Notes: generated from the letters alone by a model not told the origin. DNA of 64,000 nucleotides from Candidatus Latescibacterota bacterium (GCA_965116885.1 OZ220741.1:1600001-1664000), one strand, 5' to 3'; shown: positions 16,301 to 59,803, counted from the first letter of the stretch. Numbers and translations are program-made.

Positions 16301-16514
16301 TGGAATGGATGAGGCGATCCAGCAACGTCTTTTTGAGCCTTTTTTTTCGACTAAGGATGCCGACCGGGGTACGGGTTTGGGGTTGTCGATTATTTTTGCC
16401 ATTGTTCACAATCACGATGGAGAGATTACTGTGGAGAGTGAACAGGGCGTAGGCACGACGTTCAGGGTGATGTTGCCGGCGGTGGAGAGGGGCCTGCCCC
16501 CAGTTCCCCCCTAA
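13380..16514 (+). CDS. Sensor histidine kinase with periplasmic Reg_prop beta-propellers and Y_Y_Y domain
   Basis: DG.LW.GT repeats; YAHRLDG; TM helix; H-box VAHELNQPL; N, G1, F and G2 boxes. Confidence 0.9.
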   Translation: MQYAKYLILLILVGASACFAATPFTPRHPDPVHESWRWRSFSELKGQEVSCLAQDGDGNFLFGTDDGIYRYDGISWHLFPFDEGMVGAQINALYTSRDGSVYVGSDRGISRFENGIWERVFPSEGGWNTYNFMEARDGSLWAGTEWGALRLMVDGTRLYVAAEDTTGVREMVSDAVTFVAVPFSGQRLMVYDVCEDSNGAVWFGMYDGDLIRFDFASGFQRFSEDDGIDQGKYPRMCVTKDGVVWVVYGDESQRVNRFDGEKWEALEVGDLGRDHHYTSILESRDGTLWIGGSRLIAYRNGMWRVYDSKDIVSLPLHRMELFEAADGALWIIEREQEAARLDLSENYFQTYDGLIFQCEADGAQWFISEDNGVMRRDGQGWTRFGVADGLMDMPSKLIVTRDGALWAAGSHERVAATARLDGSEWVMERHPQLSWRVDPRGVYEAFDGTLWFAAAADWWLYDGFLGGVVVFDGASWIHHIPPMMTRYAYGIGQSSDGVLWFGGRLFGFDGMREVQFTGPEELTNDFIDAVYTQGNLWLGSRTYGVFRYDGTAWQQFDYGDGLAHNEVRSIFQDRDGAVWVGTAEGVSRFDGRTWLPRALPSGLPRTEFYDPILQSGDGAFWLNSVSDVDAWLRRSEPQRDAISYTLRTIRYVPETDPPETLMTIVQEEVSQGGKITFAWTGIDAWRSTLREDLQYAHRLDGGEWSPYGGDTILSFEGLDVGTHTVEVKARDLAFNEDPVPSLVQFNVVPLVWRRLWFISLILGFVILTGYLISRIIVRDRRLQKANEDLASANETQLLQSARLVSLGQMVAGVAHELNQPLTAVETTAGDISLRLMEGMPLETDELRKMMEDVRGVVNRMAGTVDHLRVFSRDVSEEPRQAMDVNEVIQSSLKLMGSQLERYGIDLVLDLSGALPKVWGHLHPLEQVVLNLLSNARDAVDERAEMEGVGYDKQVRVRTRGENDAVVVEVEDNGVGMDEAIQQRLFEPFFSTKDADRGTGLGLSIIFAIVHNHDGEITVESEQGVGTTFRVMLPAVERGLPPVPP

Positions 16515-18081
16515 AGGAACGGAATATGTCTCGTTCTTGCTCACCTACCGCGGGCTTCGATGCGCCAAAGCTCACATTAACCCCTCTGCTTTGAAGTGCT
16601 GGAATGTGTGTGTTGATTGATGTAGCATTTAACGGGTTATTTCTCACATAAACCCAATCCCCACTACCCAATCCCGTATTTGCGACCAGGGGCGTGAGGT
16701 CCGATATGCTGTTGTTGTAAAGAGACAGCTTTTCCAGACGGTTCAATCCTGAAAGGGATGTGATGTCCGATATGCTGTTGCTTTCAAGATCCAGCAATTT
16801 TAGACTATTCAATCCTGAAAGGGATGTGATGTCCGATATGCTGTTGCTGGAAAGAAACAGCCCTTCCAGACGGTTCAATCTCGAAAGGAGTGTGATGTCC
16901 GATACGCTGTTGCTTTCGAGAAACAGCCCTTCCAGATTGGTCAATCTTGAAAGGGGTGTGATGTCCGATATGCTGTTATTGGAAAGATACAGCCATTCCA
17001 GACGGTTCAATCCCAGAAGGGGTGTGATGTCCGATATGCTGTTGCTGGAAAGAGCCAGCCATTCCAGACGGTTCAATCTCGAAAGGGGTGTGATGTCCGA
17101 TATGCTGTTGTTGTAAAGAGACAGCTTTGTCAGGTTAATTGCAAACTCAAGTCCAGTCAGATCGCGAATATTATTGTTTGGTGCCTCAAGGCTCGTTAAG
17201 GCCACCAGGTCACCTCTGGTGATCGGAGTACCCTCCGCCTTGTTGAGACTATTCTCGATAACAGCGAGTAGATTCTCATCCGGAATGGCAACGATTGTTG
17301 CAACACCGCCAGAGGAAGATGCCTCTTTACCAAAGCTGTTGATAAAGATCAGAAAATCGGGAAACCCTATCTCGCTATTGCCATCCAGATCATACCTGGC
17401 GTCGTACGTCCCATCGCCACGACTTGTATCGAAGTGAGTTACAAACAGCAAAAAATCGGAAATATTAACCACACCATTCCCATTAAAATCACCCGTTAGC
17501 ACACTCGATGTCCCGATATCTGCCGATTTTGCAAAACTGATCACGAACCTGATTGGATCTTCTGGCGGAACGAGATGAGAAAGCGGACTCAGTGCCAGGT
17601 CTCTTACAGATTCGGGTAATGACGCCAATAATTCATCTAAGAGAAGCGGGCGTATAATATGCAGTGAATCCGCCGTAGCCGTGTACGTATAATTGAGTGG
17701 ATCTTCATTTTCGCGTGTTACGATGAGTTCATGGGTATCGGACATGACGGTGTAATTGCCTGTGTATTGGCTCGTATCGTGTACAGTGACCGTAAGCAGA
17801 ACCCATAATAACGCAGAGACATTGGCCACTGTCTTGTAGTTCGCTTGAATACTGCCATCTGAATCCAAAATCAGTGTGCCGTTGATCTCGCCTTCCACTG
17901 TAAGAGGCTTTACAGCTTCCACGAGCGCGGCCGGGACATAAGCGTTCAGTTCGACCTTGTGGGCTACCCAAGAACCGGTGAGATCCCCACCCTGAGGCCT
18001 GGGGGGTTCTGATAGAACACCCGCGTCTGCCTGCCCAAATGTTATGAGTGTCATCACGAGTAGAACACAGTTTCGCTGCAT
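16462..18081 (-). CDS. Secreted internalin-like LRR protein with dockerin/EF-hand module
   Basis: Signal peptide MQRNCVLLVM; GDFNGNGVVNISDFLLF...DLDGNSEIGFPDF; IPDENL cap; 22-aa LRRs. Confidence 0.9.
   Translation of the reverse strand: MQRNCVLLVMTLITFGQADAGVLSEPPRPQGGDLTGSWVAHKVELNAYVPAALVEAVKPLTVEGEINGTLILDSDGSIQANYKTVANVSALLWVLLTVTVHDTSQYTGNYTVMSDTHELIVTRENEDPLNYTYTATADSLHIIRPLLLDELLASLPESVRDLALSPLSHLVPPEDPIRFVISFAKSADIGTSSVLTGDFNGNGVVNISDFLLFVTHFDTSRGDGTYDARYDLDGNSEIGFPDFLIFINSFGKEASSSGGVATIVAIPDENLLAVIENSLNKAEGTPITRGDLVALTSLEAPNNNIRDLTGLEFAINLTKLSLYNNSISDITPLSRLNRLEWLALSSNSISDITPLLGLNRLEWLYLSNNSISDITPLSRLTNLEGLFLESNSVSDITLLSRLNRLEGLFLSSNSISDITSLSGLNSLKLLDLESNSISDITSLSGLNRLEKLSLYNNSISDLTPLVANTGLGSGDWVYVRNNPLNATSINTHIPALQSRGVNVSFGASKPAVGEQERDIFRSFRGELGAGPSPPPATSP
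16694..17155 (-). repeat. Tandem 66-bp coding repeats (about 7 LRR units)
   Basis: GTGATGTCCGATATGCTGTT recurs with few mismatches at 66-bp spacing (16694, 16760, 16826, 16892, 16958, 17024, 17090). Confidence 0.9.
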
Positions 18082-18222
18082 CTTAAACCGCCATTTTTTG
18101 ATCGCGGTACCAAAAAGTGACCTGTTCATTTTTCCTAATGCATGATCACTTTCCAAATTTACACAATTTTTTGCCGTCCCGTCAACTGTTTGAATATACC
18201 TCGCTGTACAAAGTTAAGATCG

Positions 18223-19749
18223 TTAGTTGTTCCTGGATGATTCAGCATAGGACACATACGCCGATCGCACGATTTCTTCGGACAGTTTGCCGCGGATGGC
18301 ATAATTGCGGCGACGTGCCCAGTATCTCGCCCACCGTTCGTCGCTGGCTATCCAATTATCCCAATAGAAGACGCCATTTACTATACCAGGATACTGCGCC
18401 ATGGTGTTGATTAATGCCTTGTAGATGTTGGCCTGCGTTTCTCGCCCGTCATCCAGCCCATTGTGGTTAGAGTCGGTAAATACGAATCGCCGGTTTTGCG
18501 CTGATGCATCACCTGGCCGTTCGGGTGTTTCAACCACATCCATAGCGCCGTATTCGGTAAATACAATGGGCCGGTCGGGGTTTGTGTTCGCAAGCGGAAT
18601 AAGCTGGTTTTGGAATATCTGCCTGTAACGCACCTGGAAACTTTCGACGCTCAGTACTGTTGACGGACGCGCGTCTGTCAGTGGAAACCACGCACTGATG
18701 CCTATGAGGTCGAGATCGAGGTCTGCCCATAGATGACCTGCGCCCGATCCCGGTCCGTAAAAGTGGGATGCTGCGAGTACGTCGTAGTGCATGTCATAGG
18801 TTAGCAGGCCACTGTACACGGCGCGCACACTTTCTACCATTGATCTGAGTTCTCGACCAAAATCATTGGTCATATAGCCTCCTGAACGCGTGCGAAAGAG
18901 CCGGTCAGTCTCCGTGCCCAATGAGTATAAACGCACGCCTTCGGCCTCTGCTATTCTGGCAAAATGTACCGCCTGTTGCGTATAGGTCGCCCAAAATTCG
19001 GCGACAAAACGCCGGTGATCCGGATGATCTGGACGCCAGGGCCAGTGTTGGGGGAGTATCACCCCATAGACATTCGAATTATCTGGCGGAACGCCGCGAG
19101 GTGCCGGGTCTCCGAGTTGCCACCTGCGTACCGGGCGTGCAGCGGTTTCTGCCTCATAGGCTTCGAATGCCAGGGTTAGATATACGTCTATTCCGTGATT
19201 TCTAAATTCTCGGATCAATTGTCTGAGTGCTTCATTTGAAAAAGTGCGAATATCTACATTTGATGCGTACACGCGTTCGACTGTGCTGTCCATGCTGTCG
19301 TCGTAATGCAGCGCGACGGAAAGGCCGATCCAGTTTACATGCAGGCTCTTTAGCCATTCGATATAGTCCATAGGTATGAGCGTTCCGATCCTTCCAGCGG
19401 CTTCCCATCTATCTACGACATCGCCAGTATCTCCCCAATTGCCCGCAGCATGAATGGCGCGTAGCGGAAATTTTATTATCGTGTCTATCGTCTGGGGCAC
19501 TGTTTTGCCAAAGTCGCTGGCAAAGATCAGAAAGTCTGAAAATGCAATCGCGCCATCGCCATCCAGGTCGAATCGGTCTTCATACGTCTCATCACCACGA
19601 CTTGTCCCGAAGTGTTCGACAAATAGCAAAAAGTCTGGAAGATCCACAACGCCGTTTCCGTCAAAGTCGGGGAGAGGGGTGTGTGATGCGTGCGCCCAGG
19701 TCCATAGACAGCTTGCCATGACTACAAGCGCGATACACAAACGCTTCAT
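18223..19749 (-). CDS. Secreted dockerin/EF-hand protein with GH113-like TIM-barrel glycoside hydrolase
   Basis: PDFDGNGVVDLPDFLLF module; SLGTET, DLIGISAWFPL, IVFTEYG, GVFYW clan-A-like motifs. Confidence 0.7.
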   Translation of the reverse strand: MKRLCIALVVMASCLWTWAHASHTPLPDFDGNGVVDLPDFLLFVEHFGTSRGDETYEDRFDLDGDGAIAFSDFLIFASDFGKTVPQTIDTIIKFPLRAIHAAGNWGDTGDVVDRWEAAGRIGTLIPMDYIEWLKSLHVNWIGLSVALHYDDSMDSTVERVYASNVDIRTFSNEALRQLIREFRNHGIDVYLTLAFEAYEAETAARPVRRWQLGDPAPRGVPPDNSNVYGVILPQHWPWRPDHPDHRRFVAEFWATYTQQAVHFARIAEAEGVRLYSLGTETDRLFRTRSGGYMTNDFGRELRSMVESVRAVYSGLLTYDMHYDVLAASHFYGPGSGAGHLWADLDLDLIGISAWFPLTDARPSTVLSVESFQVRYRQIFQNQLIPLANTNPDRPIVFTEYGAMDVVETPERPGDASAQNRRFVFTDSNHNGLDDGRETQANIYKALINTMAQYPGIVNGVFYWDNWIASDERWARYWARRRNYAIRGKLSEEIVRSAYVSYAESSRNN

Positions 19750-19960
19750 GCTGCGCCTTTCTGTGCATTGTTAAAAAGAACACGCGCCCAAAATATATTT
19801 TCAAGGGCGATAGGCAAGCGTATTTGACCTGTTCTATTGAGAAAAATCCAATGATTTAGAAATGGCCGTTGGGCTTTTTGTGTGGTTTATTCTCATTCTA
19901 TGTGCGGTATTGTATGCCATATCTCAATGTTAGAGAACGATTCATACTATTTTTCAGTTT

Positions 19961-20022
19961 TACAACAGTTTTGTTGACATTTATATTTTTACAACAGTTT
20001 TGTTTACAACAATCTTGTTGAA
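19961..20022. promoter_or_regulatory. Three CAAC-N6-GTTG-type palindromic operator-like sites
   Basis: TACAACAGTTTTGTTGAC, TACAACAGTTTTGTTTAC, TACAACAATCTTGTTGAA directly upstream of the ATPase operon. Confidence 0.65.
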
Positions 20023-20046
20023 TATTAAAAAAGAAAGAGAGGTCCC

Positions 20047-20356
20047 ATGAAATCATTCACCGGCCCCCCGGTCATCGGTGACAACTTTTTTGATCGCGAT
20101 CGCGAGTTGCAGATATTGGAAAGGCGGGTCCGTGACGGCAACCACATATTGCTGACAGGACAGCGGCGCATGGGAAAGACCAGTATAGCCCGAGAACTCG
20201 GGCGACGGCTTGAGGACAAGGGGTTGGGACCGCGATACCAGTGTAGAGTGTTTTCAACCGCGTCTGCTGAAGGACTGGTGGGCGTCGCGTTTCCGCAATC
20301 ACATATCTCTCGAAAAGCGCCGTTCTGAAGACGAATCACCGGGAGACGTACCATGA
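20047..20356 (+). pseudogene. P-loop ATPase remnant with large internal deletion
   Basis: N-terminal FFDRDREL...GQRRMGKTS (Walker A) joined out of frame to a C-terminal RLLKDWW...GDVP* whose TGA overlaps the next ATG. Confidence 0.8.
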
Positions 20357-22152
20357 ACGAATTATACAACATGTCGATCCGGAAGTTCAATCCGGGGACG
20401 CTCCAATCAGACGAGGAAGTGATTGAGCAGTTTGTGGTCAGGAAACGCGAACTCGATATCGCGCTTGAGGTGCTGCGCGGTAATATCGATTCACCATCGT
20501 GTCAGCATGTTCTGGTCGTTGCGCCTCGCGGTCTGGGAAAGACCATGCTCCTCGCGCGGATCGCGGCGGAGTTGAATACGGATGCCGAATTCTCCGAGTG
20601 TCTTTTGCCGGTTCGGTTTATGGAAGAGAGTCATGAGATATTCAATATCGCTGATTTTTGGCTCGAAACCTTGTTCCATCTTGCACGGGAAGGTGCCAGG
20701 CACGATCCCGTGCTCGCACGGGGACTGCGAGAGACATACGCCGACCTGGCTGATCGCTGGCTCGAGAAGGAACTCGCGAATCGCGTCCTTGCTGCTGTCC
20801 TGGACGCGGCGGATCGGCTGGGCAAGAAACTCGTTCTCATGGTCGAAAACCTGCAGACGCTCTACGAAGACGTAGATGAAGATTTCGGCTGGCAGCTACG
20901 CGGCACATTGCAAACGGAGCCTCAGATTATGTTGCTCACCACCGCTACGAGTCGTTTCAAAGGGCTGGACGACGCGGAGCAGCCGTTCTTTGAGCAGTTT
21001 CGAATACTGGATCTGGAACCTTTGAATACCGAAGAATGCCGTCGTTTGTGGCAGATCGTCAGCGACGACGAGGTGAGTGATCGCGAGATCAGGCCGCTTG
21101 AGATCCTGACTGGTGGGAATCCCCGTCTCCTGGTCATCATTGCCGAGTTCGCGCAGCATCAGTCATTGAGTCAGTTGATGGAAGAGCTTGTGACGCTGAT
21201 TGACGAGCATACCGAGTATTTCCGCGGTCACCTGGAGGTCTTGCCTAAGAGCGAACGCCGCGTGTACCTTTCGGTGATTGACCTTTGGCAGCCGTCGAGC
21301 GCGGGCGAGATTGCGGTGCGGGCGCGCATGGATGTTCGATACGTATCGACCATGCTCGGACGACTCGTCAACCGGGGTGCGGTCACTTTTAAGGGTACTG
21401 GTAGGAAGCGTCAGTACGAAGCCGTAGAACGCCTCTACAGCATCTATTACAAACTGAGACGCGAACGCGACGATAGGGCTTTGGTAGAAAACCTGATCAA
21501 TTTCATGGTAGCTTTCTACGGTATAGGAGAACTATACCAGATGTCCAGCAAGCTGATTTCGGAGACGACGATTATTCGCGAGGAAAATGACACTGAAGGG
21601 GAAATTGCAGCCTACAATGAGGTGATCAAGTGCTTTAGCGACCAACAGATAAATGTAGCCATCGCGTTGAGCTACAAGGGAATGAGAGAAGCCGAGATGG
21701 GGCGTGCAGCAGCAGCTTTACAAACCTGCAAAGAACTCGAACAAAGACTCGATACCTTGCCCAAAGACGGAAAAGCTTGGATTAGATGGCGAGCAATGGG
21801 TGTGCGGGCACTGGCACTGATGGTAAAGAAAAAGCGTCGGGCCGCCATGGATGCATTTCGCTCCGCGTATGCCGCGTTTCTTCCCAACAACGAAATCACC
21901 CTGCACGAGATGCAAAGAATTGTCCCCGGGTTGATAGCAAACGGTGCCCCGGAGCGAGATCTCATCGAGATCCTGTCCAGCGACAAGGAGAAAGCGGACG
22001 CGTTGGTGCCCCTCATTGTTGCCCTGCGAGAGCGTACCGGCGAGGTGGTTCGCGCACCTGTGGAAGTCCTTGAGGTCGCGAAGGATATTAACAAGAATAT
22101 TGACGCCGAAATGGCGAATTGCGATGGGGAACTGGCAGGTTTACATATCTGA
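20353..22152 (+). CDS. STAND-like P-loop ATPase + winged HTH + short TPR region (paralog 1)
   Basis: APRGLGKT Walker A, LMVENLQ Walker B, LTGGNPR, wHTH EIAVRARMDVRYVSTMLGRLV. Confidence 0.8.
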   Translation: MNELYNMSIRKFNPGTLQSDEEVIEQFVVRKRELDIALEVLRGNIDSPSCQHVLVVAPRGLGKTMLLARIAAELNTDAEFSECLLPVRFMEESHEIFNIADFWLETLFHLAREGARHDPVLARGLRETYADLADRWLEKELANRVLAAVLDAADRLGKKLVLMVENLQTLYEDVDEDFGWQLRGTLQTEPQIMLLTTATSRFKGLDDAEQPFFEQFRILDLEPLNTEECRRLWQIVSDDEVSDREIRPLEILTGGNPRLLVIIAEFAQHQSLSQLMEELVTLIDEHTEYFRGHLEVLPKSERRVYLSVIDLWQPSSAGEIAVRARMDVRYVSTMLGRLVNRGAVTFKGTGRKRQYEAVERLYSIYYKLRRERDDRALVENLINFMVAFYGIGELYQMSSKLISETTIIREENDTEGEIAAYNEVIKCFSDQQINVAIALSYKGMREAEMGRAAAALQTCKELEQRLDTLPKDGKAWIRWRAMGVRALALMVKKKRRAAMDAFRSAYAAFLPNNEITLHEMQRIVPGLIANGAPERDLIEILSSDKEKADALVPLIVALRERTGEVVRAPVEVLEVAKDINKNIDAEMANCDGELAGLHI

Positions 22153-22164
22153 AGTTCTTATAGG

Positions 22165-22203
22165 AAAAGCCCAACGGTTTGGAGAAGGCCGTTGGGCTTT
22201 TTT
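22165..22203. terminator. Bidirectional terminator (degenerate copy at ~19842-19880)
   Basis: AAAAGCCCAACGG-loop-CCGTTGGGCTTTTTT. Confidence 0.8.
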
Positions 22204-22259
22204 GTGTGGTTTTCTCTGGCTTCCGCCAGGGTCAAGGCCGATTTAAAACTCATTTTTCC

Positions 22260-22349
22260 CTACGTTCCATGTTCCATTGATAGGAGCGTTCCGACTCTTT
22301 GTAAAACCGCATCGCCGCGCTGTGGAACGCACTCGTCTGGCTTCACCAT
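22260..22349 (-). pseudogene. mazF: MazF toxin remnant (in-frame internal deletion)
   Basis: MVKPDECVPQRGDAV|LQRVGTLLSMEHGT: MazF-like N- and C-termini fused; overlaps the mazE stop. Confidence 0.75.
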
Positions 22350-22585
22350 ATTTCACCGCCTACAGCAGGTCCAGTATCTATTTCACCGTGTAAGTTGTGC
22401 TCGGTCACCTGGGATAGAAGGTCGTCCAATTTCAAGTCAGATGGCTTTACAGGTTCAATGACCAATTCCTTACCACGCAGCGATAATTCGACCGGCGAAT
22501 TGGGTTCAAGCCCGATCTGGACAGCGAGTGGTTTGGGAATACGCAGGGCCAAACTATTGCCCCATTTCTGCACACGGGTTTCCAT
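22343..22585 (-). CDS. mazE: AbrB/MazE/SpoVT-family antitoxin
   Basis: VQKWGNSLALRIPK...LDDLLSQVT..NLHGEIDTG.AVGGEIW; GAGGAG RBS. Confidence 0.92.
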   Translation of the reverse strand: METRVQKWGNSLALRIPKPLAVQIGLEPNSPVELSLRGKELVIEPVKPSDLKLDDLLSQVTEHNLHGEIDTGPAVGGEIW

Positions 22586-22727
22586 ATCTTCCTCCTCTAA
22601 ATAGTAGATACATTGAGACTTAGAACTTATCAAGGCCAATTTTGCATCCCTCACGAAGTGGCAATACAATACGCGATATTGCATGTCATATCCCATTGGT
22701 AGAGAATGACTTATATCGACTTCGCAC

Positions 22728-22836
22728 TTTTGTCCACAATTTGGTTGACAAAAACTTTTGGAATATTATTTTGTCAACTGTTTAGTTGACAAAAACTTTT
22801 GGAATATTATTTCGTCAACTGTTTAGTTGACAAAAA
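22728..22836. repeat. 41-bp tandem repeat carrying GTCAAC-TGTTTA-GTTGAC palindromes
   Basis: GTTGACAAAAA at 22744, 22785 and 22826; a first imperfect palindrome GTCCACAATTTGGTTGAC. Confidence 0.85.
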
Positions 22837-22862
22837 TTTAATGAATCATCAGGAGACGCGTA

Positions 22863-25322
22863 ATGAACAATTGTGATCGACCAATCCGCAAGTTCAATCC
22901 GGGGACGTTTCAGTCCGACGAGGAGGTGATTGAGCAGTTCGCGGTGAGGAAACACGAACTCGATACGGTGCTTGGGGTGCTGCGTAGGAATATCGGTTCA
23001 CCATCGTGTCAGCACGTTCTGGTGGTCGCGCCTCGGGGTCGGGGAAAGACGATGTTGCTCGCGCGCGTTTCGGCGGAACTGAATACTGACGAGGAACTCT
23101 TCAGGTGTTTTTTGCCGGTTCGGTTTATGGAGGAGAGTCACGAGATATTCGATCTCGCGGATTTTTGGCTGGAGACTTTGTTTTATCTTGCGCAGGAGAG
23201 TGTCAGATACGATTCCGCGCTCGCACAGGAGTTGCGAGAGGCGCACGCCGATCTGACCGATCACTGGGACGAGGCATCGCTCGCGGATCGCGCCCGTAAT
23301 ACTGTTCTGGACGCGGCGGATGGGTTGGGTAAAAAGCTCGTTCTTATGGTGGAAAATCTGCAGGCACTCTGCGAAGATGTGGATGACGATTTTGGCTGGC
23401 AGTTGCGCGGCGCGTTGGAATCCGAGCCTCGGATCGTGTTGCTCGCTACTGCGACGAGTCGCTTTGAGGGGTTGGAAAATGCAGCGGAGCCGTTTTTTGA
23501 GTTGTTCCGAATTGTCGATTTGGAACCGCTGAGCACTGAGGACTGCTGCCGTCTGTGGGAGGTGGTCAGTGGCGATGTGGTGACTGAGCGCGAGATCAGG
23601 CCGCTCGAGATCCTGACCGGTGGCAATCCCCGTCTTCTAATCATGGTTGCCGAGTTCGCGCAGCACAGGTCGTTGCGCCAGTTGATGGAAGAACTGGTGA
23701 CGCTGATTGACGAGCATACCGAGTATTTTCGCGGTTATCTGGAGGCTTTGCCCAGGAGCGAGCGTCGCGTGTATCTCGCGTTGATTGATTTTTGGCGACC
23801 ATCGAGTACGAGCGAGATCGCGGCACGGGCGCGTATGGGGGTTCGGCCCGTATCGACTATGCTCGGTCGGCTTGTCAGTCGGGGTGCGGTCGTCGTGGAG
23901 GGGACTGGCAGGAAGCGATTGTACGCCGCAGGGGAACCTCTCTATAGCATCTATTACAAGCTGCGGCGCGAGCGCGACGAGGCGACAGGTATGAGGCGTC
24001 TGATCCATTTCATGATGGCGTTTTACGGGATAGGCAAGTTGTACCAGATGTCTGGTCGGCTGAGTTTGGAGGCGGCAGAGTCAAAGGTTATTCGCGAGGG
24101 TATTGAGCGTGCGCTCGCCGAACAACCGGATGTTGAGGACAGTTTTTTACGCGTGGCAGGGTCGGCTGTCGAATATATATCGGATAAAGCGACGGCAAAT
24201 GCGCCATTCACAGCGGAACTGCGTTTAAAAGAGGAGATCCGAACGGCGCTCGATGAGAAAGAATTTGAAAGGGTTATCGAGATTGGTGACCATTTTATCG
24301 CTTCAGGAGGCGTGGATGTATCTCTGATGCCAGAGTCTCTGCTTGCCTACATCTTGCATATGAGGGCTATTGCTTATGAAAAATTGGAGAATTTCCAGGG
24401 GGTGGTCGCGGTTTGCGATGAGATGGTTGAGCGTTTCGACGACGCGAGCGACCATACACTTCAGGCGCGGATGGCTCGCGTATTGATCCACGGGGCAAGA
24501 GCGCGATATGAACTCGGAGAGTTGGGGTTGGTGATGTCGGCATATGAGGAGGTGATTGAGCGTTTTGGTGCCAGCGACGCGCCCGATTTCCAGTTTCCGG
24601 TCGCTCTGGCGCTGTTAAAAAAGGGAGATTTGCAAGTTCAACAGAGAGAGTTGGGGCTGGCGGTGTCTGTATATGAAGAGGTGATTGCCCGCTTTGGCGC
24701 CAGCGATGCATCGGGGATTCAGGTTTTGGTCGCCTGGGCGTTGTCCCAAAAGGGAGATTTGCAAGTTCAGCTAAGAGAGTTGGATTTGGCGATGTCAGCG
24801 TATGAAGAGGTGATCGAGCGTTTTGGTGCCAGCGATGTGCCAGCGATCCGGGTTCTGATCGCCTGGGCATTATCCCAAAAGGGTATGATACAAATTAAGG
24901 TGGAGCGTATGAAAGAAGCTATGCTCATAAGTGAAGAGCTTGAGGGAAGACTCGGTGCGTTGGCTGACGATGAGAAGGTGGTGTTTGTATGGCGAGCAAG
25001 GTATGTCCAGGCTTTGGCATTGCTGCTCAGGAACAGACTACGGATGGCTATGGATGTATTTCAGTCGGCGTATGCGGTGTTCTTACCTGACAACGAGACG
25101 ATGATGTATGAGATGCTACAACTCGTGCCCGATTTGATCGCAAACGGTGCCTCGGAGCCTGATCTTGTCGATATTCTCCTGTCCAGGGGGAAATCCGATG
25201 CGTTGGAACCGCTTATTGTTGCCTTACGACAGCGTTCCGGCGAGGTGGTTCGCGCGCCTGTGGAGGTTCTTGAGGTGGCGAGGGATATTAACAAGCGTAT
25301 TGAGTTTTTTCTAAATGCATGA
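22863..25322 (+). CDS. STAND-like P-loop ATPase + winged HTH + TPR repeats (paralog 2)
   Basis: APRGRGKT, LMVENLQ, LTGGNPR; 43-aa repeats; highly similar to 20353-22152. Confidence 0.85.
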   Translation: MNNCDRPIRKFNPGTFQSDEEVIEQFAVRKHELDTVLGVLRRNIGSPSCQHVLVVAPRGRGKTMLLARVSAELNTDEELFRCFLPVRFMEESHEIFDLADFWLETLFYLAQESVRYDSALAQELREAHADLTDHWDEASLADRARNTVLDAADGLGKKLVLMVENLQALCEDVDDDFGWQLRGALESEPRIVLLATATSRFEGLENAAEPFFELFRIVDLEPLSTEDCCRLWEVVSGDVVTEREIRPLEILTGGNPRLLIMVAEFAQHRSLRQLMEELVTLIDEHTEYFRGYLEALPRSERRVYLALIDFWRPSSTSEIAARARMGVRPVSTMLGRLVSRGAVVVEGTGRKRLYAAGEPLYSIYYKLRRERDEATGMRRLIHFMMAFYGIGKLYQMSGRLSLEAAESKVIREGIERALAEQPDVEDSFLRVAGSAVEYISDKATANAPFTAELRLKEEIRTALDEKEFERVIEIGDHFIASGGVDVSLMPESLLAYILHMRAIAYEKLENFQGVVAVCDEMVERFDDASDHTLQARMARVLIHGARARYELGELGLVMSAYEEVIERFGASDAPDFQFPVALALLKKGDLQVQQRELGLAVSVYEEVIARFGASDASGIQVLVAWALSQKGDLQVQLRELDLAMSAYEEVIERFGASDVPAIRVLIAWALSQKGMIQIKVERMKEAMLISEELEGRLGALADDEKVVFVWRARYVQALALLLRNRLRMAMDVFQSAYAVFLPDNETMMYEMLQLVPDLIANGASEPDLVDILLSRGKSDALEPLIVALRQRSGEVVRAPVEVLEVARDINKRIEFFLNA
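24519..24885 (+). repeat. 129-bp (43-aa) tandem TPR-like coding repeats
   Basis: EL.L..S.YEEVI.RFGASD units start at 24519, 24648 and 24777. Confidence 0.9.
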
Positions 25323-25391
25323 AAACATTAAAATTTAAAAAACATAATATGAATACGCGATCTTGCTTTTTGCCAATCCCGTTTTATTTTT

Positions 25392-26576
25392 TTAAAATGT
25401 GTCTCCCAATATGCGAATGAATAATGTGCCGCTAAATCGCACTTGTGCGCGTTTCAGTATTTCGATTTTTTGTTTTTTTTCTGTAAGTTCTTGTTCCATT
25501 CGCCTCAATTTAAGATAGTGAATTGGCGGATAAGTCCTTTTTGAGATTTCCAGTTTTTCACAAATTCTCAATATTTCCTCCGATAGATTTTTTTCGCGTT
25601 CTGATAAGTTTTGAAGGATGGGCTGAAGTCGAGAGATGTTCTCTTTTTGGGCAAATTGAAATTTCAATGACCGGGGGGCGATGGTGATGGCATTGGGGGT
25701 TTCGCGTCCGGGAGAGAATGTATCAGATGATTTGAGCTGTCCAGATACAAGACTGTTTTCGGGGATCTGATTTACCAGTTGCTCATAGGTTTCGTCTTTT
25801 AACTGGCGTATCTGTATTTTTACGGGGCGATCTGTTTCTCGCACGCGCACTTTGTCTGGTAAGATGGCGCCGTGCTCTCCGCATGTTTGAACCCGTCCGT
25901 TGACTATGATCCAGAACATGGCGGGTTTGGCGTCGAGGATTACACCTTCTCCGCGTACGTGCTCCCGCGTGTGTCGCCAGCGTCCTTCAAAGGTTAAGAT
26001 GGTTTCTGTGTCGGCTCTGCGATAATTTGCGTATGCAGCAGAGGGGGTGGCCATGAGGTATCTGAATGATTGCCAGATGCCTCCCATGTGCAATATGGGC
26101 AGAAATATCAGGAGCATAAGCAAAAGTCCGATTAACAGACAACCTTCTCCCGTAGATCCAGTTTTGATTCTGTATTTTGCGTTGCCGGGAAAGACACAGG
26201 GCGCTGAATAGGGATAAAACAGGGGTACACCGCTTTTGGTGGCGCAATCGGCGATTATATGGCTCATATAGCCCAGGATTAGGGCCGTGTAACACGGAAT
26301 TTGCCAGATGAGCAAGGGCCAGATCATAACCGATAGGGTGAGCAGGCAGAGCAACGAGTGTGTGATGGTGCGGTGTCCCCATTGCTTCTCGATGGGGATG
26401 GAGGCAAATGGGAGCACGCGACCGATATAACTGCGTGGGGAATCTATATCCGGGAGCACGCTGCCTATGATGGTGCCTGCGATAGCGGGGAGGTTGTGGT
26501 GAAGGGGCATGGAGAAGAAGGAAAAGGATCCCGCTACGGTGAGTAGTCCAAATGCAATATGTGTGGGAGCTGTCAT
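25392..26576 (-). CDS. YdjM/DUF457-like metal-dependent inner-membrane hydrolase with C-terminal extension
   Basis: TH, GSVLPDID, HRTITHSL, SHIIAD, GVPLFYP motifs. Confidence 0.85.
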   Translation of the reverse strand: MTAPTHIAFGLLTVAGSFSFFSMPLHHNLPAIAGTIIGSVLPDIDSPRSYIGRVLPFASIPIEKQWGHRTITHSLLCLLTLSVMIWPLLIWQIPCYTALILGYMSHIIADCATKSGVPLFYPYSAPCVFPGNAKYRIKTGSTGEGCLLIGLLLMLLIFLPILHMGGIWQSFRYLMATPSAAYANYRRADTETILTFEGRWRHTREHVRGEGVILDAKPAMFWIIVNGRVQTCGEHGAILPDKVRVRETDRPVKIQIRQLKDETYEQLVNQIPENSLVSGQLKSSDTFSPGRETPNAITIAPRSLKFQFAQKENISRLQPILQNLSEREKNLSEEILRICEKLEISKRTYPPIHYLKLRRMEQELTEKKQKIEILKRAQVRFSGTLFIRILGDTF

Positions 26577-27544: not shown

Positions 27545-27621
27545 AAGTTTTCAAAAATCCCATAACTACTTGCAGGAGAGCGTGTTTTTAAAAAATGCCG
27601 CGAAAAGGACATGTGGGAAAC

Positions 27622-27658
27622 TGTTTCATATGACACAGTAAGTGTTTCATTTGAAACA
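27622..27658. promoter_or_regulatory. Two enhancer-like UAS palindromes (TGT-N10-ACA)
   Basis: TGTTTCATATGACACA and TGTTTCATTTGAAACA, 21 bp apart, ~80-115 bp upstream of the -24 box. Confidence 0.65.
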
Positions 27659-27681
27659 GGGGAATTACAGAGGAGAGTACA

Positions 27682-27713
27682 CAAAAAATGCCCTGAAGAA
27701 CACAGGGCATTTT
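27682..27713 (-). terminator. Intrinsic terminator downstream of pyrK / candidate sRNA
   Basis: AAAATGCCCTG-N7-CAGGGCATTTTTT on the minus strand. Confidence 0.75.
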
Positions 27714-27827
27714 GGAGGGTGATTATTGTAGGCATTCTTCAATTGCCTACAAGGCAGGTCTTAGAGTTTGATCACGGCAATGAGAATGCCCGTTATACAG
27801 CAAAAAGTCAATGGACTATGCCCGCTT

Positions 27828-30730: not shown

Positions 30731-32542
30731 TTAAGAAGTATGAAAGTCCTGGAGTGAACGGATGCGAATTGCGCTGTTGTTTTTGAGCGATTGGATGCCG
30801 GCAACAGCCGCCGCCGCGCCCGATAAGGTGGTTGTGTAGGGCAGGCCGTATTGAACGGCGGCCTTGCGAATTTCGGGGTCGGCGGCTTGAGATTGTTCTC
30901 CTGCGGGCGTGTTGATCATGAGAGAAATTTCGCCGTTTTTGATGGCGTCGAGGATATTTGGGCGCCCTTCCTGAATTTTGAAGATCAGGTTGCAGGCTAT
31001 GTTGTGGTTTTGGAGAAAGGCGCGAGTGCCTCGGGTGGCAATCAGGCGAAAATTCATGTCAGATAGTTGTTGGGCAATCGGTATAAGTCCTTCTTTGTCG
31101 TGGTCGTTGACGCTCAAAAATACGGTTCCGTCCTGGGGCAGGCGCACGCCTGCACCGAGTTGCGCTTTTTGAAAGCTGAGGCCAAAGTCGGTATCTATGC
31201 CCATGACTTCGCCCGTGGATTTCATTTCGGGACCGAGTACGGTGTCAACGCCGGGAAATTTGTTGAAGGGCAAGACTGCTTCTTTGACGGCAATGTGGTT
31301 GATGGGCACTTCTCGGGTAAACCCCTGTTCTTTGAGTGTGCGTCCGACCATTGCGCGGACAGCGACTTTTGCCAGGGGCACGCCGATGGCTTTGCTGACA
31401 AAGGGCACTGTGCGCGATGCTCTCGGGTTGACTTCTATAATAAATACGTCTTCGCCTTGAATGGCAAACTGAATGTTCATGAGGCCAACTACGTTGAGTG
31501 CTCTGGCCAGGGCGCGCGTGTGGCTTCGCAGCTCATTGAGGTTGGTGTCGGAGATCTGATATGGGGGCAAGACACAGGCGCTATCGCCAGAGTGAACGCC
31601 CGCGCTTTCGATGTGTTGCATGATGCCGCCGATGACGACTGCTGTTGGGTCTGCTACGGCATCGACATCAAATTCGTGTGCGTCTTCTAAGAACCGGTCG
31701 ATGAGGATGGGCCGTTCAGGAGAGGCTTCTATTGCATTGCGCATATAGGCGATGAGGGCTTCGCGGTCATATACGATTGCCATTGCGCGGCCTCCGAGTA
31801 CGTAAGAGGGACGCACGAGGACTGGATATCCGATTTGTTCGGCTATGGCGATTGCTTCGTCGGTGCTTACTGCGGTGCCGTTTTCGGGTTGTCGTATGCC
31901 CAGTTCTTTGATGAGTGCGCCAAAGCGCTTGCGGTCTTCGGCCAGGTCGATTGCGTCGGGCGATGTGCCGGCGATGTTGAGGCCCCCGCGTTCGAGGTCG
32001 CGCGCGAGGTTGAGCGGTGTTTGTCCGCCGAATTGAACAATGACGCCGTCGGGTTGTTCAATATCGGCAATGCTGAGTACGTCTTCGGCGGTGAGCGGTT
32101 CAAAGTAGAGTTTGTCAGATGTGTCGTAGTCGGTGGAGACGGTTTCGGGGTTGGAGTTGACCATGATGGTCTCAAACCCGTCTTCTTTGAGGGCATAGGA
32201 GGCGTGGCAACAACAATAGTCGAATTCAATGCCCTGTCCAATGCGATTGGGACCGCCGCCCAGGATCATGATTTTTTGGCGATCGGATCGGATGGCTTCG
32301 TTGTCTGTCTCATAGGTCGAATAGTGATACGGTGTATAGGCTTCAAATTCGGCGGCGCATGTATCTACGGTTTTGAATACGGGCGCGACGCCGAGTTCTT
32401 TTCGCAGGGCGCGAACAGTCCATTCGTCACTTTGCCACAGGTGTGCCAGTTGGCGGTCAGAGAAGCCGTGGCGTTTGGCTTTGAGCAGGTCTGCGCGAGA
32501 TATACGCGATTTTAAGGTATTGAGCGTGTGCTGTTTTGTCAT
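30731..32542 (-). CDS. carB: Carbamoyl-phosphate synthase large chain, C-terminal part
   Basis: GFSDRQLA, VDTCAAEF, GGPNRIGQGIEFDY, EVNPRASRT, EMKSTGEVM, MGS domain. Confidence 0.95.
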   Translation of the reverse strand: MTKQHTLNTLKSRISRADLLKAKRHGFSDRQLAHLWQSDEWTVRALRKELGVAPVFKTVDTCAAEFEAYTPYHYSTYETDNEAIRSDRQKIMILGGGPNRIGQGIEFDYCCCHASYALKEDGFETIMVNSNPETVSTDYDTSDKLYFEPLTAEDVLSIADIEQPDGVIVQFGGQTPLNLARDLERGGLNIAGTSPDAIDLAEDRKRFGALIKELGIRQPENGTAVSTDEAIAIAEQIGYPVLVRPSYVLGGRAMAIVYDREALIAYMRNAIEASPERPILIDRFLEDAHEFDVDAVADPTAVVIGGIMQHIESAGVHSGDSACVLPPYQISDTNLNELRSHTRALARALNVVGLMNIQFAIQGEDVFIIEVNPRASRTVPFVSKAIGVPLAKVAVRAMVGRTLKEQGFTREVPINHIAVKEAVLPFNKFPGVDTVLGPEMKSTGEVMGIDTDFGLSFQKAQLGAGVRLPQDGTVFLSVNDHDKEGLIPIAQQLSDMNFRLIATRGTRAFLQNHNIACNLIFKIQEGRPNILDAIKNGEISLMINTPAGEQSQAADPEIRKAAVQYGLPYTTTLSGAAAAVAGIQSLKNNSAIRIRSLQDFHTS

Positions 32543-32544
32543 GG

Positions 32545-33993
32545 TTAGTCCATTAGAGCGGCGAGTTCTTTTTCGACTTCGACGAGTTGTCGCATGTTGT
32601 CGAGAAAATAGGGATCAATTTTGGTGGCGTCGAATATTTCCTGTACGGATAATCCCGCGTCATAAGCCGTTTTGAGATAGGCCAATCGCTGCGAGTTGGG
32701 TTCGCGCAGGCCGCGTTCGAGGGCTTCGCGCGAGAGGGTGTTGGGATGGATGTCTTTGCCGTCGGCACCAAATCCCGCACGCCCGATTTCGAGAGAGCGC
32801 AAGCCTTTTTGCAGTGCTTCTTTAAACGTGCGACCTATGGCCATGGTTTCACCTACGGATTTCATTTGTGTGCCCAACAAATCATCGGTTTGGGGAAACT
32901 TTTCAAATGTCCAGCGCGGGATTTTGATAACGCAATAGTCGATGGTGGGTTCAAATGAGGCGGGCGTTTCGCGCGTGATGTCGTTTTGAATTTCGTCCAG
33001 GGTGTATCCAATGGCGAGTTTGGCGGCTATTTTGGCTATGGGAAAGCCCGTGGCTTTTGAGGCGAGTGCGGAACTGCGGGATACGCGGGGGTTCATTTCT
33101 ATGACGACGCGTCGGCCCGTGTTGGGATCTACTGCAAACTGAATGTTGGAGCCGCCGGTTTCTACACCAATTTCGCGGATACAGGCGATGGCGTCATCGC
33201 GCATTTCCTGATATTCTTTGTCGGTGAGCGTTTGCGCAGGTGCCACGGTGATGGAGTCGCCCGTGTGTACGCCCATGGGATCGAAGTTTTCTATGGAGCA
33301 GATGATGACGACGTTGTCGTTTTGATCGCGCATGACTTCGAGTTCAAATTCTTTCCAGCCGATGATGGACTCTTCTACGAGGATCTCTGTGGTGGGTGAT
33401 AGGCTGAGTCCGTGTGCCGCAGCGTGTCTGAATTCTTCGATGTTGTACGCGGTGCCAGCGCCTGTGCCGCCCAGGGTATAGGATGGGCGGATGATGGCAG
33501 GGAATCCGATTTCAGCCGTGATGTCGAGTGCTTCTTTGAGGGTGTAGGCAAATCGGCCTTTGGGGAAGTCGAGGCCGATTTTGTCCATGGCTTTTTGAAA
33601 GGCTTCGCGGTTTTCGGCTTTTTCAATGGCGTGTGGTTTTGCGCCGATCATTTCGACATCGAATTTTTCGAGTGTTCCCTGTTCGTGCAGGGCCATGGCG
33701 GTGTTGAGGCCCGTTTGTCCGCCCAGTGTTGGGAGGAGGGCGTCCGGGCGTTCTTTTTCGATGATGGCTGTGCATACTTCGGGTGTGACGGGTTCGACAT
33801 AAGTCTGGTCAGCCATTTCGGGGTCGGTCATGATGGTGGCGGGGTTGCTGTTGACCAGCACGACTTCGTATCCCTCTTCTTTTAGGGCTTTGCAGGCTTG
33901 TGTGCCGGAGTAGTCAAATTCACAGGCTTGTCCGATGACGATGGGACCAGAGCCGATGAGCATTATTTTTTTGAGGTCGGTTCGTTTGGGCAT
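32545..33993 (-). CDS. carB: Carbamoyl-phosphate synthase large chain, N-terminal part
   Basis: [47 protein letters not shown]. Confidence 0.95.
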
Positions 33994-46055: not shown

Positions 46056-46079
46056 GGAGGGTCCTTTCAAAGAAGAATT

Positions 46080-49231: not shown

Positions 49232-49293
49232 AGCACATCTCTTTCTTAGTCTCGAATAATTCTAAGAACCTGTTTTAAGGGGAAGACGTGAAC

Positions 49294-49324
49294 AAAAAAC
49301 CACGCTCAAAGGACGTGGTTTTTT
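49294..49324 (-). terminator. Intrinsic terminator
   Basis: AAAAAACCACG-N9-CGTGGTTTTTT. Confidence 0.75.
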
Positions 49325-49326
49325 GA

Positions 49327-51846: not shown

Positions 51847-51923
51847 GTCATCCTCCTGTTGACACACATTTGAATAATCAAATTCCTTACCCTTTATACA
51901 GTTTTATACAGCAATTGTTTCGT

Positions 51924-53909: not shown

Positions 53910-53919
53910 TTTTTAATTT

Positions 53920-56262: not shown

Positions 56263-56269
56263 AATTGTC

Positions 56270-59200: not shown

Positions 59201-59803
59201 GGCAGAGGCTTGTTTGAACTCCCAGCGCGAGAGGCTCAGTTGCGCCAGGCGTGCGGCGTTGAAGCCCGATGTCAGGTTGGGCAGAGCGTTTTCACCCATA
59301 GCGGGGGCGGTCGGTTTTAATCCTTTTATCGCTTTTTCAGTGGTCCAGATAATGGATTCCATGTCCGGATCATCTATTATGAGGATATCGCGTCCCGATG
59401 ACGTCAGTTCCCAGTATCGGGATGGGGCGAGGGAGATGGTGTGTCCCCTGTGCAAGATGTCGCCGGGTGCGGGCAATAATAGGGGGATGGATTGGAAGAC
59501 GATGGTTCCGGTTTCTGTTTTTCCCAGTTGACCTGGTCGCCCGGGGAAAATGCCGAGACACTGTTCCCGTTCTGCACCATTGGTCCACAGTTCCGTCAGT
59601 GCGATGCCGCCCATTTCTCGAGAATAGGTCCACACCTGACTGGTCGCTCCGGTGCGGAGGATTAGATCCTCCTGAGCGTCTGCTGTGCTCCAGAGCACAA
59701 CAGCTATGAGTAATGCGTATCTGATTGGTAAAGTGAACACGGTATGTCTCCTGGCGAATTCTACGGAACGGGGTACAACTGGCCGATTCTCAGGCCAGTT
59801 CAT
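56270..59803 (-). CDS. Large TPR + GWxTD-like domain protein with extra N-terminal domains
   Basis: FWALKDP, EHYRRVWYA, FDRRGEVYIRFGEPD, YYEIYNL. Confidence 0.88.
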   Translation of the reverse strand: MNWPENRPVVPRSVEFARRHTVFTLPIRYALLIAVVLWSTADAQEDLILRTGATSQVWTYSREMGGIALTELWTNGAEREQCLGIFPGRPGQLGKTETGTIVFQSIPLLLPAPGDILHRGHTISLAPSRYWELTSSGRDILIIDDPDMESIIWTTEKAIKGLKPTAPAMGENALPNLTSGFNAARLAQLSLSRWEFKQASAYYKQAARHFETLARQSAKNGLSKSPMQDYVQTFQTAAQEIRKNGSRWVCRDHLTAISRLLTAYRRDHRGEMPDQLSALQKWAAAESRADPETIARLFRAPADRDNTRPISYFFRPNAATGEAIVVSYFYPGRLVELVRQTESYRVQDRPIGKTQIDSLVEMGKTLLSQNDTLAVPILTALTHVAPEMELGHCLLGYAYLEIEDYDRARNAFERAIDLNHRLSEAYNGLGLVFQNRPKGMYNAIRYFRRALRWPPDERLSQLYNTHRDARFNMAQTRYKLKEYDTKRDLDHVIALDPTYAPTYKLLGKWWEEQEEDYEQAAMAYARYITLAPEDPEGRELLSRAYLRSKNFDRIVQLLENHIRQYPEEITSLPILAQACLELKRPNWAQTYFSRYVAHLDPQHRALYEDIQFLASVEELEEYNSLGTDVARSSFLRQFWALKDPNLITAPNERKLEHYRRVWYALTNFSEKKKPFDRRGEVYIRFGEPDYRSRSNMLNLDQSLSVQRVKERVAQTLFGGEAAQQTYFGPVYPVRGLQARLSGATSLRAQIEDASMQQAIEQSQERERQGLESGDEERRTVRTGQATGDDQTGEDISAFERLANTVVNAGNMGSGFFDLQPDFNAVSVPEDASMVRWETWIYTDVNGGIEITFTDEAMNGNFDYAPAPLDPNIPIRTLALLNRYNPRRVTEFAARVTPDYYATPENTHPLEFYYDLADFQSLQNDVSALEVYTGIPRTLGRYFAENNTTELVVERTVSLLNEQTGDVYRRTGDVRYRNEGDQTGIQGAFVPDVVRLNAPPGYYKLEVQLQDRLSGRQGRYRQIIELEKYQTRSMKVSDLELAWRIAEGGPQDKFRKGELHVVPMPTRTYPKGQNIFVYYEIYNLKRDEFGQTKYQVEYTIAPKGKGVGGAVSRLVRTLGGKREKVLMGYEQVGTMDLETVYTELELGDREPGRYALEVVITDLNSEQTASKNALFVVQ

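Follow-up and report, generated by a model that had tools for sequence, protein, structure and literature searches.

Proteins of the STAND superfamily, as reportedly described by Leipe et al. in 2004, are said to combine a P-loop nucleoside triphosphatase (NTPase), a helical domain with a GxP motif, a winged helix and C-terminal repeats that form a superstructure. Immunity depends centrally on STAND/NLR-like proteins in every domain of life, and the characterised bacterial ones bear an obvious killing domain. Plant sensor/helper NLR pairs consist of two related NTPases encoded next to each other, of which only one has a large variable sensor. Non-immune STAND regulators also exist, and the available parts of PMC13581612 name MalT, GutR and AfsR as such. 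Here we report the analysis of a 64,000-nucleotide (nt) stretch of DNA (hereafter referred to as the window) from a Candidatus Latescibacterota bacterium (GCA_965116885.1 OZ220741.1:1600001-1664000), and of a locus within it (19842..25322) that carries two STAND-like genes, A and B. A first-pass annotation had read this locus as tandem STAND/NLR-like cassettes of an ATPase, a winged helix-turn-helix and tetratricopeptide repeats (TPRs), and as a candidate for an undescribed defence or sensor system; its observations, except that the mazF gene proved to be a stub, and its view of the architecture agree with what we found, and the function that it proposed is plausible, albeit unproven. We tentatively regard the locus as an eroded tandem copy of a mobile, self-regulated two-gene conflict sensor module without an effector, for which defence against phages or other mobile elements is the likeliest role, a reading that we consider plausible while stopping short of calling it probable.

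The proteins encoded by genes A and B are paralogs, as the first-pass annotation had claimed. BLASTP aligns their N-terminal modules with 295 identities in 405 positions (73%, E = 0) and their conserved C-terminal helical domains (the last ~170 residues) with 92 in 172 (53%, 2e-41), a similarity far beyond chance. Their genome, a single contig of 5.56 Mb that is 98% complete, contains no copy besides these two. A search of 5.8 billion proteins, in which 8,000 candidates were scored, returned more than 4,335 relatives of gene A; the best 120 of these are 61–99% identical over the shared part and 516–1,044 amino acids (aa) long, and their only source name is 'tetratricopeptide repeat protein'. 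Because diverged families of NTPase-module paralogs (~47%, 37% and 30% identity) also occur in the phylum, several per genome (G102, G103, G118, G122, G128, G133, G141 and G164–G167), the sensor superfamily appears to be much wider than the close clade studied here.

The motifs on which the first-pass annotation relied, APRG.GKT (A57/B56), LMVENLQ (A162/B161, noted there as VENLQ) and GGNPR (A254/B253), are all found, as are TATSRF and, in the wing, GRKR. In a family alignment of 56 sequences, these motifs show no variation or almost none. Residues P58, R59, G60, G62, K63, T64, E165, Q168, T253, G254, G255 and R258 are invariant in this alignment, and the wing motif GxGRKRxY and the helical-domain motif LTGGNPR are invariant or nearly so. 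The usual Walker A consensus is [AG]-x4-GK[ST], which the A-x4-G-K-T of the sensors fits, and the earlier description of an atypical Walker A thus does not stand, whereas the Walker B is indeed atypical, with E-N where AAA+ proteins usually have D-E. The family displays the STAND features in order: the Walker A and B motifs, the segment T253-G254-G255-N-P-R258, which we take to be the STAND GxP motif, with a helical lid and a winged helix, and C-terminal 43-aa helical repeats. The winged helix is basic, with R323, R325, R329, R337 and R341 invariant and K352 and R353 nearly invariant among the 56 sequences.

A structure model of the gene A protein (predicted local distance difference test, pLDDT, 78.6; predicted template modelling score, pTM, 0.53) comprises an AAA+ core, a lid, a winged helix (helices 299–311, 317–324 and 328–340; strands 344–347 and 354–357) and an all-helical tail. 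The winged helix-turn-helix predicted earlier is therefore seen in the model, with weak support from Pfam, in which the TrmB winged-helix family scores 16.6 and 17.8 bits for the two sensors against a cut-off of 25.6. Pfam AAA_16 exceeds its cut-off for both (40.5 and 32.7 bits versus 32.6), and the winged-helix, TPR, NACHT and nSTAND matches to A and B are all sub-threshold. In Foldseek, the best match of gene A is DNA-bound Orc1 (2v1u, 6.2e-8), together with the Arch_ATPase 2qen, Avs3 (8dgc, 8.8e-8), the STAND-TPR protein 6mfv (2.5e-7) and, further down, Apaf-1, CED-4, SAMD9, NLRP7, NRC3 and EfAvs5. Solved STAND proteins thus match at E values of 1e-7 to 1e-5, and Orc1/Cdc6 and Arch_ATPase proteins match as well or better. 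The TM-scores on the query are low (0.2–0.3) because the domains are flexibly joined. The Pfam AAA_16 matches and this mixture of Orc1, Arch_ATPase, Avs3 and NLR folds bear out the STAND/NLR-like architecture, and they place the sensor family at the Arch_ATPase/Orc1 edge of the STAND superfamily, where it passes no specific family model.

A comparison with the closest described systems shows how the locus departs from each. Like Orc1/Cdc6 (Aeropyrum 2v1u), gene A encodes an AAA+ module followed by a winged helix of the DNA-binding kind, and repeated palindromes adjoin the gene; unlike Orc1/Cdc6, the sensor has a TPR-like repeat tail, a STAND-type GxP motif and bacterial hosts, its two-gene cassette is found in diverse chromosomal settings and shows nothing that suggests a replicon, and the NCBIfam orc1/cdc6 model (TIGR02928) yields 12.3 bits against a cut-off of 181.3. 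Avs proteins (Avs3, 8dgc) share with it the STAND NTPase, the winged helix, a C-terminal TPR-like sensor of variable length and horizontal spread. However, the sensor lacks an N-terminal effector, no PADLOC Avs model matches (A and B at E <= 0.1; two full-length relatives at E <= 0.01), and, in contrast to Avs, the cassette has a coupled second ATPase, a basic winged helix of the DNA-binding type and a private operator. As for bNACHT, the NACHT module (PF05729) remains below its cut-off of 26.7 in the sensors (15.8 bits for gene A and 16.8 for its ortholog at the related locus L014). MalT, AfsR, GutR and 6mfv resemble the sensors in joining an NTPase switch to a helical-repeat sensor, with DNA binding as the output, but A and B have no LuxR or SARP DNA-binding domain (Pfam, E <= 0.1), and their cassette has a partner ATPase and no conserved target operon. 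The locus is therefore a STAND/NLR-like sensor of a kind outside Avs, bNACHT, MalT-type regulators and Orc1/Cdc6, whose defining features it lacks. Plant NLR pairs offer a likeness in their side-by-side NTPases, and NRC3 is among the gene A fold matches, but this is analogy only, since the partner resembles Arch_ATPase and not NB-ARC proteins.

In relatives, the sensor gene has a second gene in front of it. We compared the best 80 of 184 relatives from a genome scan (hereafter the related loci), and tblastn located the N terminus of a partner ATPase ~1.24 kb upstream of the sensor in 65 of the 80 and its tail in 59. The partner is intact in most loci (407–416 aa; 414 aa in L014), has the canonical motifs GQRRMGKT and LLVIDELP, and in L014 overlaps the sensor gene by four nucleotides (ATGA). 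Its alignment has a mean column identity of 78%, with GQRRMGKT and DELP invariant, and the scoring of 8,000 candidates gave 1,830 relatives, none of them named. A structure model of the partner (pLDDT 83.5, pTM 0.80) matches the Arch_ATPase (PF01637) structures PAB2304 (2qen, 3.8e-10) and SSO1545 (2fna, 4.0e-10) first (TM 0.60–0.64 on the target), followed by Orc1/Cdc6, RuvB, TnsC and CED-4; the same two structures rank second and eighth for gene A. The partner shares with them the AAA+ core, the lid and a C-terminal winged helix, at ~16% sequence identity, and its scores against the PF01637 profile (30.3 bits in L014 and 24.2 in L027) fall below the cut-off of 33.2, whereas most of 120 listed partner homologs bear a precomputed PF01637 match. 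The archaeal PAB2304 and SSO1545 have no known function, coupled TPR sensor or known operator. The intact unit in relatives is a two-gene cassette in which an Arch_ATPase-like AAA+ partner is followed by a translationally coupled STAND-like sensor. Sensors without a partner occur in loci such as L012 and L079, and one locus (L067:4646-11115) holds two full cassettes in tail-to-tail orientation; the partner of the second is truncated, and a double operator precedes each.

The cassette also carries an operator of its own. CAAC-N6-GTTG palindromes lie upstream of the partner, or of gene B where B stands alone, frequently in a doubled form, CAAC-N6-GTTG-A-CAAC-N6-GTTG, that surrounds a TTGACA −35 box. 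Of 64 cassette upstream regions, 56 contain such palindromes (125 sites in 10.4 kb), versus 26 sites in the remaining 793 kb of these loci. Doubling is seen in 36 of the 64 regions and once elsewhere, before the second, inverted cassette of L067. In the genome studied here, the double form is confined to the region upstream of the partner stub, and the B-type palindrome to that upstream of B, apart from one unrelated single site. All nine B-lineage copies examined have palindromes at −88 and −47, with or without mazEF, and four of the nine have no adjoining mazEF, on which grounds we rejected the idea that the palindromes upstream of B are MazE operators; they belong to the sensor gene. The sensor winged helix is the likely binder of this operator, and its five invariant arginines and the near-invariant K-R pair in the wing fit such a role.

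Genes A and B differ mainly in their central TPR-like region, as had been observed, with one and four repeat units, respectively (residues 510–681 in B, whose DNA includes three 129-nt units at 24517-24903). When 87 family proteins were scanned with a profile of the 43-residue unit, the count was 0–14 units per protein (median 4), with none or one in 13 of them. Pairwise ratios of nonsynonymous to synonymous substitution rates (dN/dS) against orthologs are 0.11–0.20 for the NTPase module and 0.25–0.41 for the repeats of gene B, which are thus two to three times less constrained. For the five closest orthologs (B against L013_2, L011_2, L079_1 and L014_2; A against L014_1) the NTPase values are 0.11–0.16, and gene A has a value of 0.13 against its nearest ortholog. 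Both genes are therefore kept by purifying selection and, because of this, are probably still used. Gene B, at 819 aa, matches its orthologs in length (818–819 aa, 91–95% identical in the NTPase module), whereas gene A is shorter by ~220 residues than its closest ortholog (L014, 816 aa, 92% identical in the NTPase module). We had considered gene A a broken gene, a view that we softened given the recurrence of forms with 0–1 repeats and the dN/dS of 0.13. The earlier notion of a 'diversifying sensor array' is borne out only in part, by the range of repeat numbers and the weaker constraint on the repeats, but not by their dN/dS, which stays below 1.

The cassette is widely and patchily distributed. 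It is 65–80% identical across at least seven phyla, and its flanking genes vary from locus to locus outside one synteny group, which comprises one genus. In a tree of the NTPase module (77 rows), phyla are interleaved on branches of at most 0.33, with 15 changes of phylum label versus a minimum of 6 and a shuffled mean of 36.2, the labels being submitter-given and paralogy being able to add changes; a Rhodobacteraceae row adjoins Gemmatimonadota, Binatia are placed next to Paracoccaceae, and one Latescibacterota clade includes Gemmatimonadota. Identities of 65–80% between phyla are hard to explain without transfer, and the cassette is probably horizontally mobile. Within Latescibacterota, a match (E <= 1e-30) is present in 52 of 168 genomes and in 11 of 49 genera, a count that includes diverged paralog families of 28–48% identity. 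In same-genus genomes without the gene (G087 and G091), the flanks are not syntenic and insertion borders were not found. The close family members come from metagenome-assembled genomes of sponge-typical phyla, and DNA of the window is present in 20 of 23 listed sequencing runs, 13 of which, from seven studies, are labelled sponge metagenome. Sponge symbionts exchange defence and other enriched genes laterally, according to the available parts of PMC8163846.

In the window, this cassette is eroded. The open reading frame (ORF) at 20047-20328 is 82% identical to residues 1–77 of the intact L014 partner and matches the N-terminal part of Pfam AAA_16/ATPase_2; codons ~78–380 are deleted and the frame is shifted, such that the +1 frame (20252-20353) encodes the last 34 residues of the partner (381–414) and its TGA overlaps the ATG of gene A as ATGA. 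The claim that gene A is coupled through ATGA to a decayed partner ATPase therefore held, the partner being the operon mate in 65 of the 80 related loci, and no intact partner exists anywhere in the genome. Three internal deletions mark the locus, in the partner, in the sensor region of gene A and in mazF. The deleted arrangement recurs on a DNA contig of the sponge-metagenome run X3, and for this reason an assembly artefact is unlikely. A mazEF module between A and B had also been described, and mazE is indeed intact (Pfam MazE, 44.2 bits versus a cut-off of 24.7; NCBIfam MazE, 8.8e-11, below cut-off), but mazF is only a 29-codon stub and is dead in this genome, whereas relative L006 keeps an intact 118-aa PemK/MazF (L006:8601-8957; Pfam PemK 1.4e-24). 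The link to mazEF is lineage-specific. Because only five of the 80 related loci have mazE (94–98% identical), it is a local insertion and not a part of the cassette. Eight loci share the order leucine-rich repeat (LRR)/dockerin, GH113, partner, A, (mazFE), B and YdjM, and the A and B lineages arose by duplication inside one Latescibacterota genus. Contigs of three metatranscriptome libraries from two studies match, with 95–100% likeness, the partner stub (19993-20345), mazE (22418-22589) and parts of gene B (22857-25235), which is only a hint of expression given that such RNA libraries can contain DNA; none lies on the body of gene A (~20520-22150), and contigs cannot show absence.

The genomic context speaks to a defence role in two different ways. 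As near neighbours we took ORFs no shorter than 100 aa that lay at most two ORF positions away from a sensor, one per blastp cluster, which gave 114 proteins. The pool comprised 979 ORFs, or 477 of 90 aa or more after dereplication, and the counts are rough owing to a crude ORF caller and the dereplication. Pfam annotates 46 of the 114, among them five transposases or integrases, five toxin–antitoxin proteins and four restriction–modification proteins or helicases. PADLOC matches at 1e-8 were obtained for 13 neighbours, of which ~7, in six loci, are credible: a HipA-like candidate, HKD-Snf2, a methyltransferase, a UvrD/GajB-like protein, a type I restriction enzyme with PDC-M45B, and a reverse transcriptase fragment. 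This rate is above the background proximity to defence genes of 1.5% given in the available parts of PMC13581612, a weak indication in that it consists of single-model matches from related loci without a matched control. Sensor relatives at 19–40% identity, all without a partner, occur in nine plasmid records. Homologs with 39–40% identity lie on conjugative plasmids, the Sphingobium copy beside a Pycsar pair and AbiE, and an Agrobacterium plasmid homolog adjoins two cyclase genes, ThiF and Tn3. Linkage to defence islands is thus weak for the close family and clearer for the plasmid homologs of 40% identity; the defence role proposed earlier gains from these two independent homologs and only weakly from the near neighbours. 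One neighbouring ORF (L063:8989-10821) joins a Druantia DruA-like N-terminal region to a DDE transposase domain (Pfam 2.3e-27 and 8e-16).

The family itself seems undescribed, as had been proposed. No PADLOC, NCBIfam or Pfam model names the sensor family, and no PADLOC or NCBIfam match rises above noise, the NCBIfam search of A and B giving sub-threshold P-loop matches only. The literature searched, mostly at the level of titles and abstracts, yielded no paper on the two-ATPase module, and a word search for family-linked names in those supplementary files of PMC13581612 (589 STAND clades) that were available gave no match. The absence of an obvious effector domain, noted earlier, was likewise seen in Pfam, PADLOC and NCBIfam. 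The cassette has no nuclease, protease, TIR or SIR2 effector, and the C-terminal 170 residues of gene B, whose ESM Atlas look-alikes are TPR-like or unnamed clusters with near-chance scores of 0.89–0.90, give no effector lead and look, on this weak evidence, like a helical-repeat cap only.

How might such a module work? The sensor, with E-N in its Walker B, could be a nucleotide-bound switch rather than a fast hydrolase, the array of 0–14 TPR-like repeats could sense a ligand, and the winged helix, with seven invariant or nearly invariant basic residues, could bind DNA. The −35 box inside the palindromes of the cassette promoter would then provide self-regulation. Ligand capture by the repeat solenoid may free the NTPase module to oligomerise, and the oligomerised sensor may alter DNA binding at its own operator and engage the hydrolysis-competent partner ATPase (canonical Walker A and B, C-terminal winged helix) as the executing subunit. 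In the genome studied here, the partner gene is destroyed, the sensor region of gene A mostly lost and the toxin of the inserted mazEF lost, which leaves only A and B as orphan sensors. Several observations weigh against the reading of the locus as a defence module of this kind. The idea of an executing subunit may be wrong because the partner is dispensable for the keeping of A and B in this genome. No effector family was found for A, B or their relatives in Pfam, PADLOC or NCBIfam, and only ~25 residues precede the NTPase. PADLOC-DB v2 (5,027 models) gave nothing beyond P-loop noise (best mad8, 1.7e-6, in the P-loop region only). No pairwise dN/dS of the repeats exceeds 1, and these averages show no positive selection. 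Among the annotated neighbours, 32 of 46 are metabolic or other proteins, and the ~7 credible PADLOC neighbours among 114 amount to weak linkage. Finally, 50,697 phage records contain no sensor copy, and partner homologs were absent from plasmids and, in a scan with only two peptide patterns, from viral contigs.

Other explanations account for parts of the same evidence. The cassette could encode a signal-sensing transcription regulator akin to MalT or AfsR, with no immune role, that turns genes on or off once its TPR-like repeats have captured some small molecule or protein peculiar to a sponge-dwelling life. The basic winged helix with its five invariant arginines and near-invariant K352 and R353, the conserved palindromic operator that overlaps the −35 box, the DNA-bound Orc1 as the top fold match, the occurrence of the window DNA in sponge metagenomes and the existence of non-immune STAND regulators (named in the accessible parts of PMC13581612) would all suit it. 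The operator, however, is private to the cassette in its own genome, such that its only visible target is itself, and neighbours are unconserved across loci, so that no regulated operon travels along. A translationally coupled second ATPase is absent from such regulators, a LuxR or SARP DNA-binding domain is absent from the sensors, and distant homologs belong to defence islands on plasmids of bacteria from soil and sludge; we consider a regulator of this type rather unlikely. It is less likely still that the locus is, in its own genome, a dying relic without present function. Its three internal deletions and the loss of any intact partner from a nearly complete, single-contig genome point that way, but A and B retain intact frames, and their NTPase dN/dS is low in comparison with the five closest orthologs. 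Moreover, B has lost neither length nor operator, short forms like A recur in the family, and contigs from RNA libraries, which can contain DNA, cover parts of B.

A selfish addiction or maintenance module, in which a toxin–antitoxin-like pair of ATPases rides on mobile DNA and its loss harms the cell, would explain a self-contained, autoregulated and tightly coupled two-gene unit, its spread across phyla, the transposases and toxin–antitoxin genes that often adjoin it, and the frequency of erosion and orphan copies. Neither protein resembles a known toxin, however, the partner could be deleted while both sensors remained under purifying selection, sensors persist without a partner (L012 and L079), and a large variable repeat sensor is unexpected in an addiction pair, which together make this explanation improbable. 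We give the least credence, and very little, to an 'eukaryote-like' TPR protein for interaction between symbiont and sponge, for instance to avoid being eaten. The accessible parts of PMC8163846 describe an enrichment of TPR proteins in sponge symbionts and ascribe to them a presumed role in maintaining the association with the host; in addition, the close members come from sponge-typical phyla, window DNA is found in sponge metagenomes and adjoining genes encode LRR/dockerin proteins. Against this stand N termini that, read by eye from the sequences, are polar and without a signal-peptide-like stretch, the cytoplasmic character of the NTPase, the basic winged helix and the private DNA operator, and the 40%-identity relatives on Agrobacterium and Sphingobium plasmids.

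If a conflict sensor module is nonetheless what the cassette encodes, a bolder and doubtful extension is that it represents a new class of effector-less NLR-like immunity, in which a STAND 'sensor' with TPR repeats would pair with an Arch_ATPase-like AAA+ 'helper'. The output would be an ATP-driven action on DNA through the winged helices, such as a block on the replication or transcription of an invader or of the cell itself, and the system would be shared among at least seven sponge-dwelling phyla. Were this true, part of the 'eukaryote-like TPR' enrichment of sponge symbionts would consist of intracellular immune sensors and not of host-interaction factors; counts of such proteins in symbiont genomes may, in any case, include cytoplasmic sensors. 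A thousands-strong family that combines a sensor STAND, a second ATPase and a private operator with no effector points to an undescribed output mechanism, and its cross-phylum identity of 65–80% is a concrete, traceable case of gene sharing in a host-associated microbiome. The locus also displays a course of module erosion, with the helper lost first and orphan sensors kept, which can guide the choice of the parts needed for function.

Table 1. Positions of the cassette remnants, both sensor genes and the intervening features, counted from the first nucleotide of the window
Feature	Position	Strand	Description
Promoter/operator of cassette	19951..20027	+	CAAC-N6-GTTG at 19963-19976 and 20007-20020, inside 29-nt direct repeats
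Sigma-70-like promoter	19959-19987	+	TTTACA-17-TATATT, within the cassette promoter/operator
Partner AAA+ ATPase, 5′ remnant	20047..20328	+	93-aa ORF; residues 1-77 homologous; Walker A GQRRMGKTS retained
Partner gene, 3′ remnant	20252..20356	+	+1 frame; residues 381-414; TGA 20354-20356
Gene A, short STAND-like sensor	20353..22152	+	599 aa, open frame; NTPase 25-~290, basic winged helix-turn-helix ~299-360, one 43-aa repeat (413-450), C-terminal helical cap
Terminator-like hairpin 3′ of gene A	22163..22203	+	18-pair stem, then T run
mazF stub	22260..22349	-	29 codons; in-frame internal deletion of a 118-aa PemK/MazF gene
mazE antitoxin gene	22343..22585	-	Intact, 80 aa; Pfam MazE_antitoxin 1.9e-11
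Gene B promoter/operator	22728..22850	+	Three 41-nt repeats with TTGTCAAC-N6-GTTGACAA palindromes
Perfect palindromes of gene B operator	22773-22790 and 22814-22831		
Promoter within gene B operator	22745-22772		TTGACA-16-TATTTT
Gene B, full-length STAND-like sensor	22863..25322	+	819 aa, open frame; NTPase, basic winged helix-turn-helix, helical linker, four 43-aa TPR-like repeats (510-681), C-terminal helical cap

The hairpin 3′ of gene A belongs to a wider set. Similar sequence lies at 19831-19893, short hairpins or terminator-like sequences also occur at 25360-25399 and ~27620-27800, and the hairpin sequence recurs at many unrelated sites in same-genus genomes (small matches of 85–95% in G074, G087 and G090). 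It looks like a dispersed repeat family of the genus, similar to repetitive extragenic palindromic (REP) elements or miniature inverted-repeat transposable elements (MITEs). We had taken the hairpins at 19831-19893 and 22154-22217 for the tail of a third cassette copy, an idea that was dropped once the short repeat proved to be dispersed across the genus.

The wider window is not a defence island: it encodes LRR/dockerin and GH113 proteins, a YdjM membrane protein, carbamoyl-phosphate synthase, NAD(P)HX repair and many TPR proteins. An LRR protein (16462-18156, minus strand) and a GH113-like glycoside hydrolase (18223-19749, minus strand) both have dockerin-type calcium-binding repeats; they are typical 'eukaryote-like' or polysaccharide-degrading symbiont genes and are syntenic with the cassette in eight related Latescibacterota loci. 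The large subunit of carbamoyl-phosphate synthase is apparently split between adjacent genes (30731-32542 and 32545-33993, minus strand). At 41529-46070 (minus strand), a 1513-aa protein fuses an M28 peptidase domain to MacB/FtsX-type permease domains, an unusual combination. Very large TPR proteins (616–1177 aa) form a run at 46934-63128 (minus strand) around a DUF6785/DUF6784 membrane protein (51924-53909). Across the window (1-64000), GC skew is positive in nearly all 2-kb bins and reaches 0.39 at the left end.

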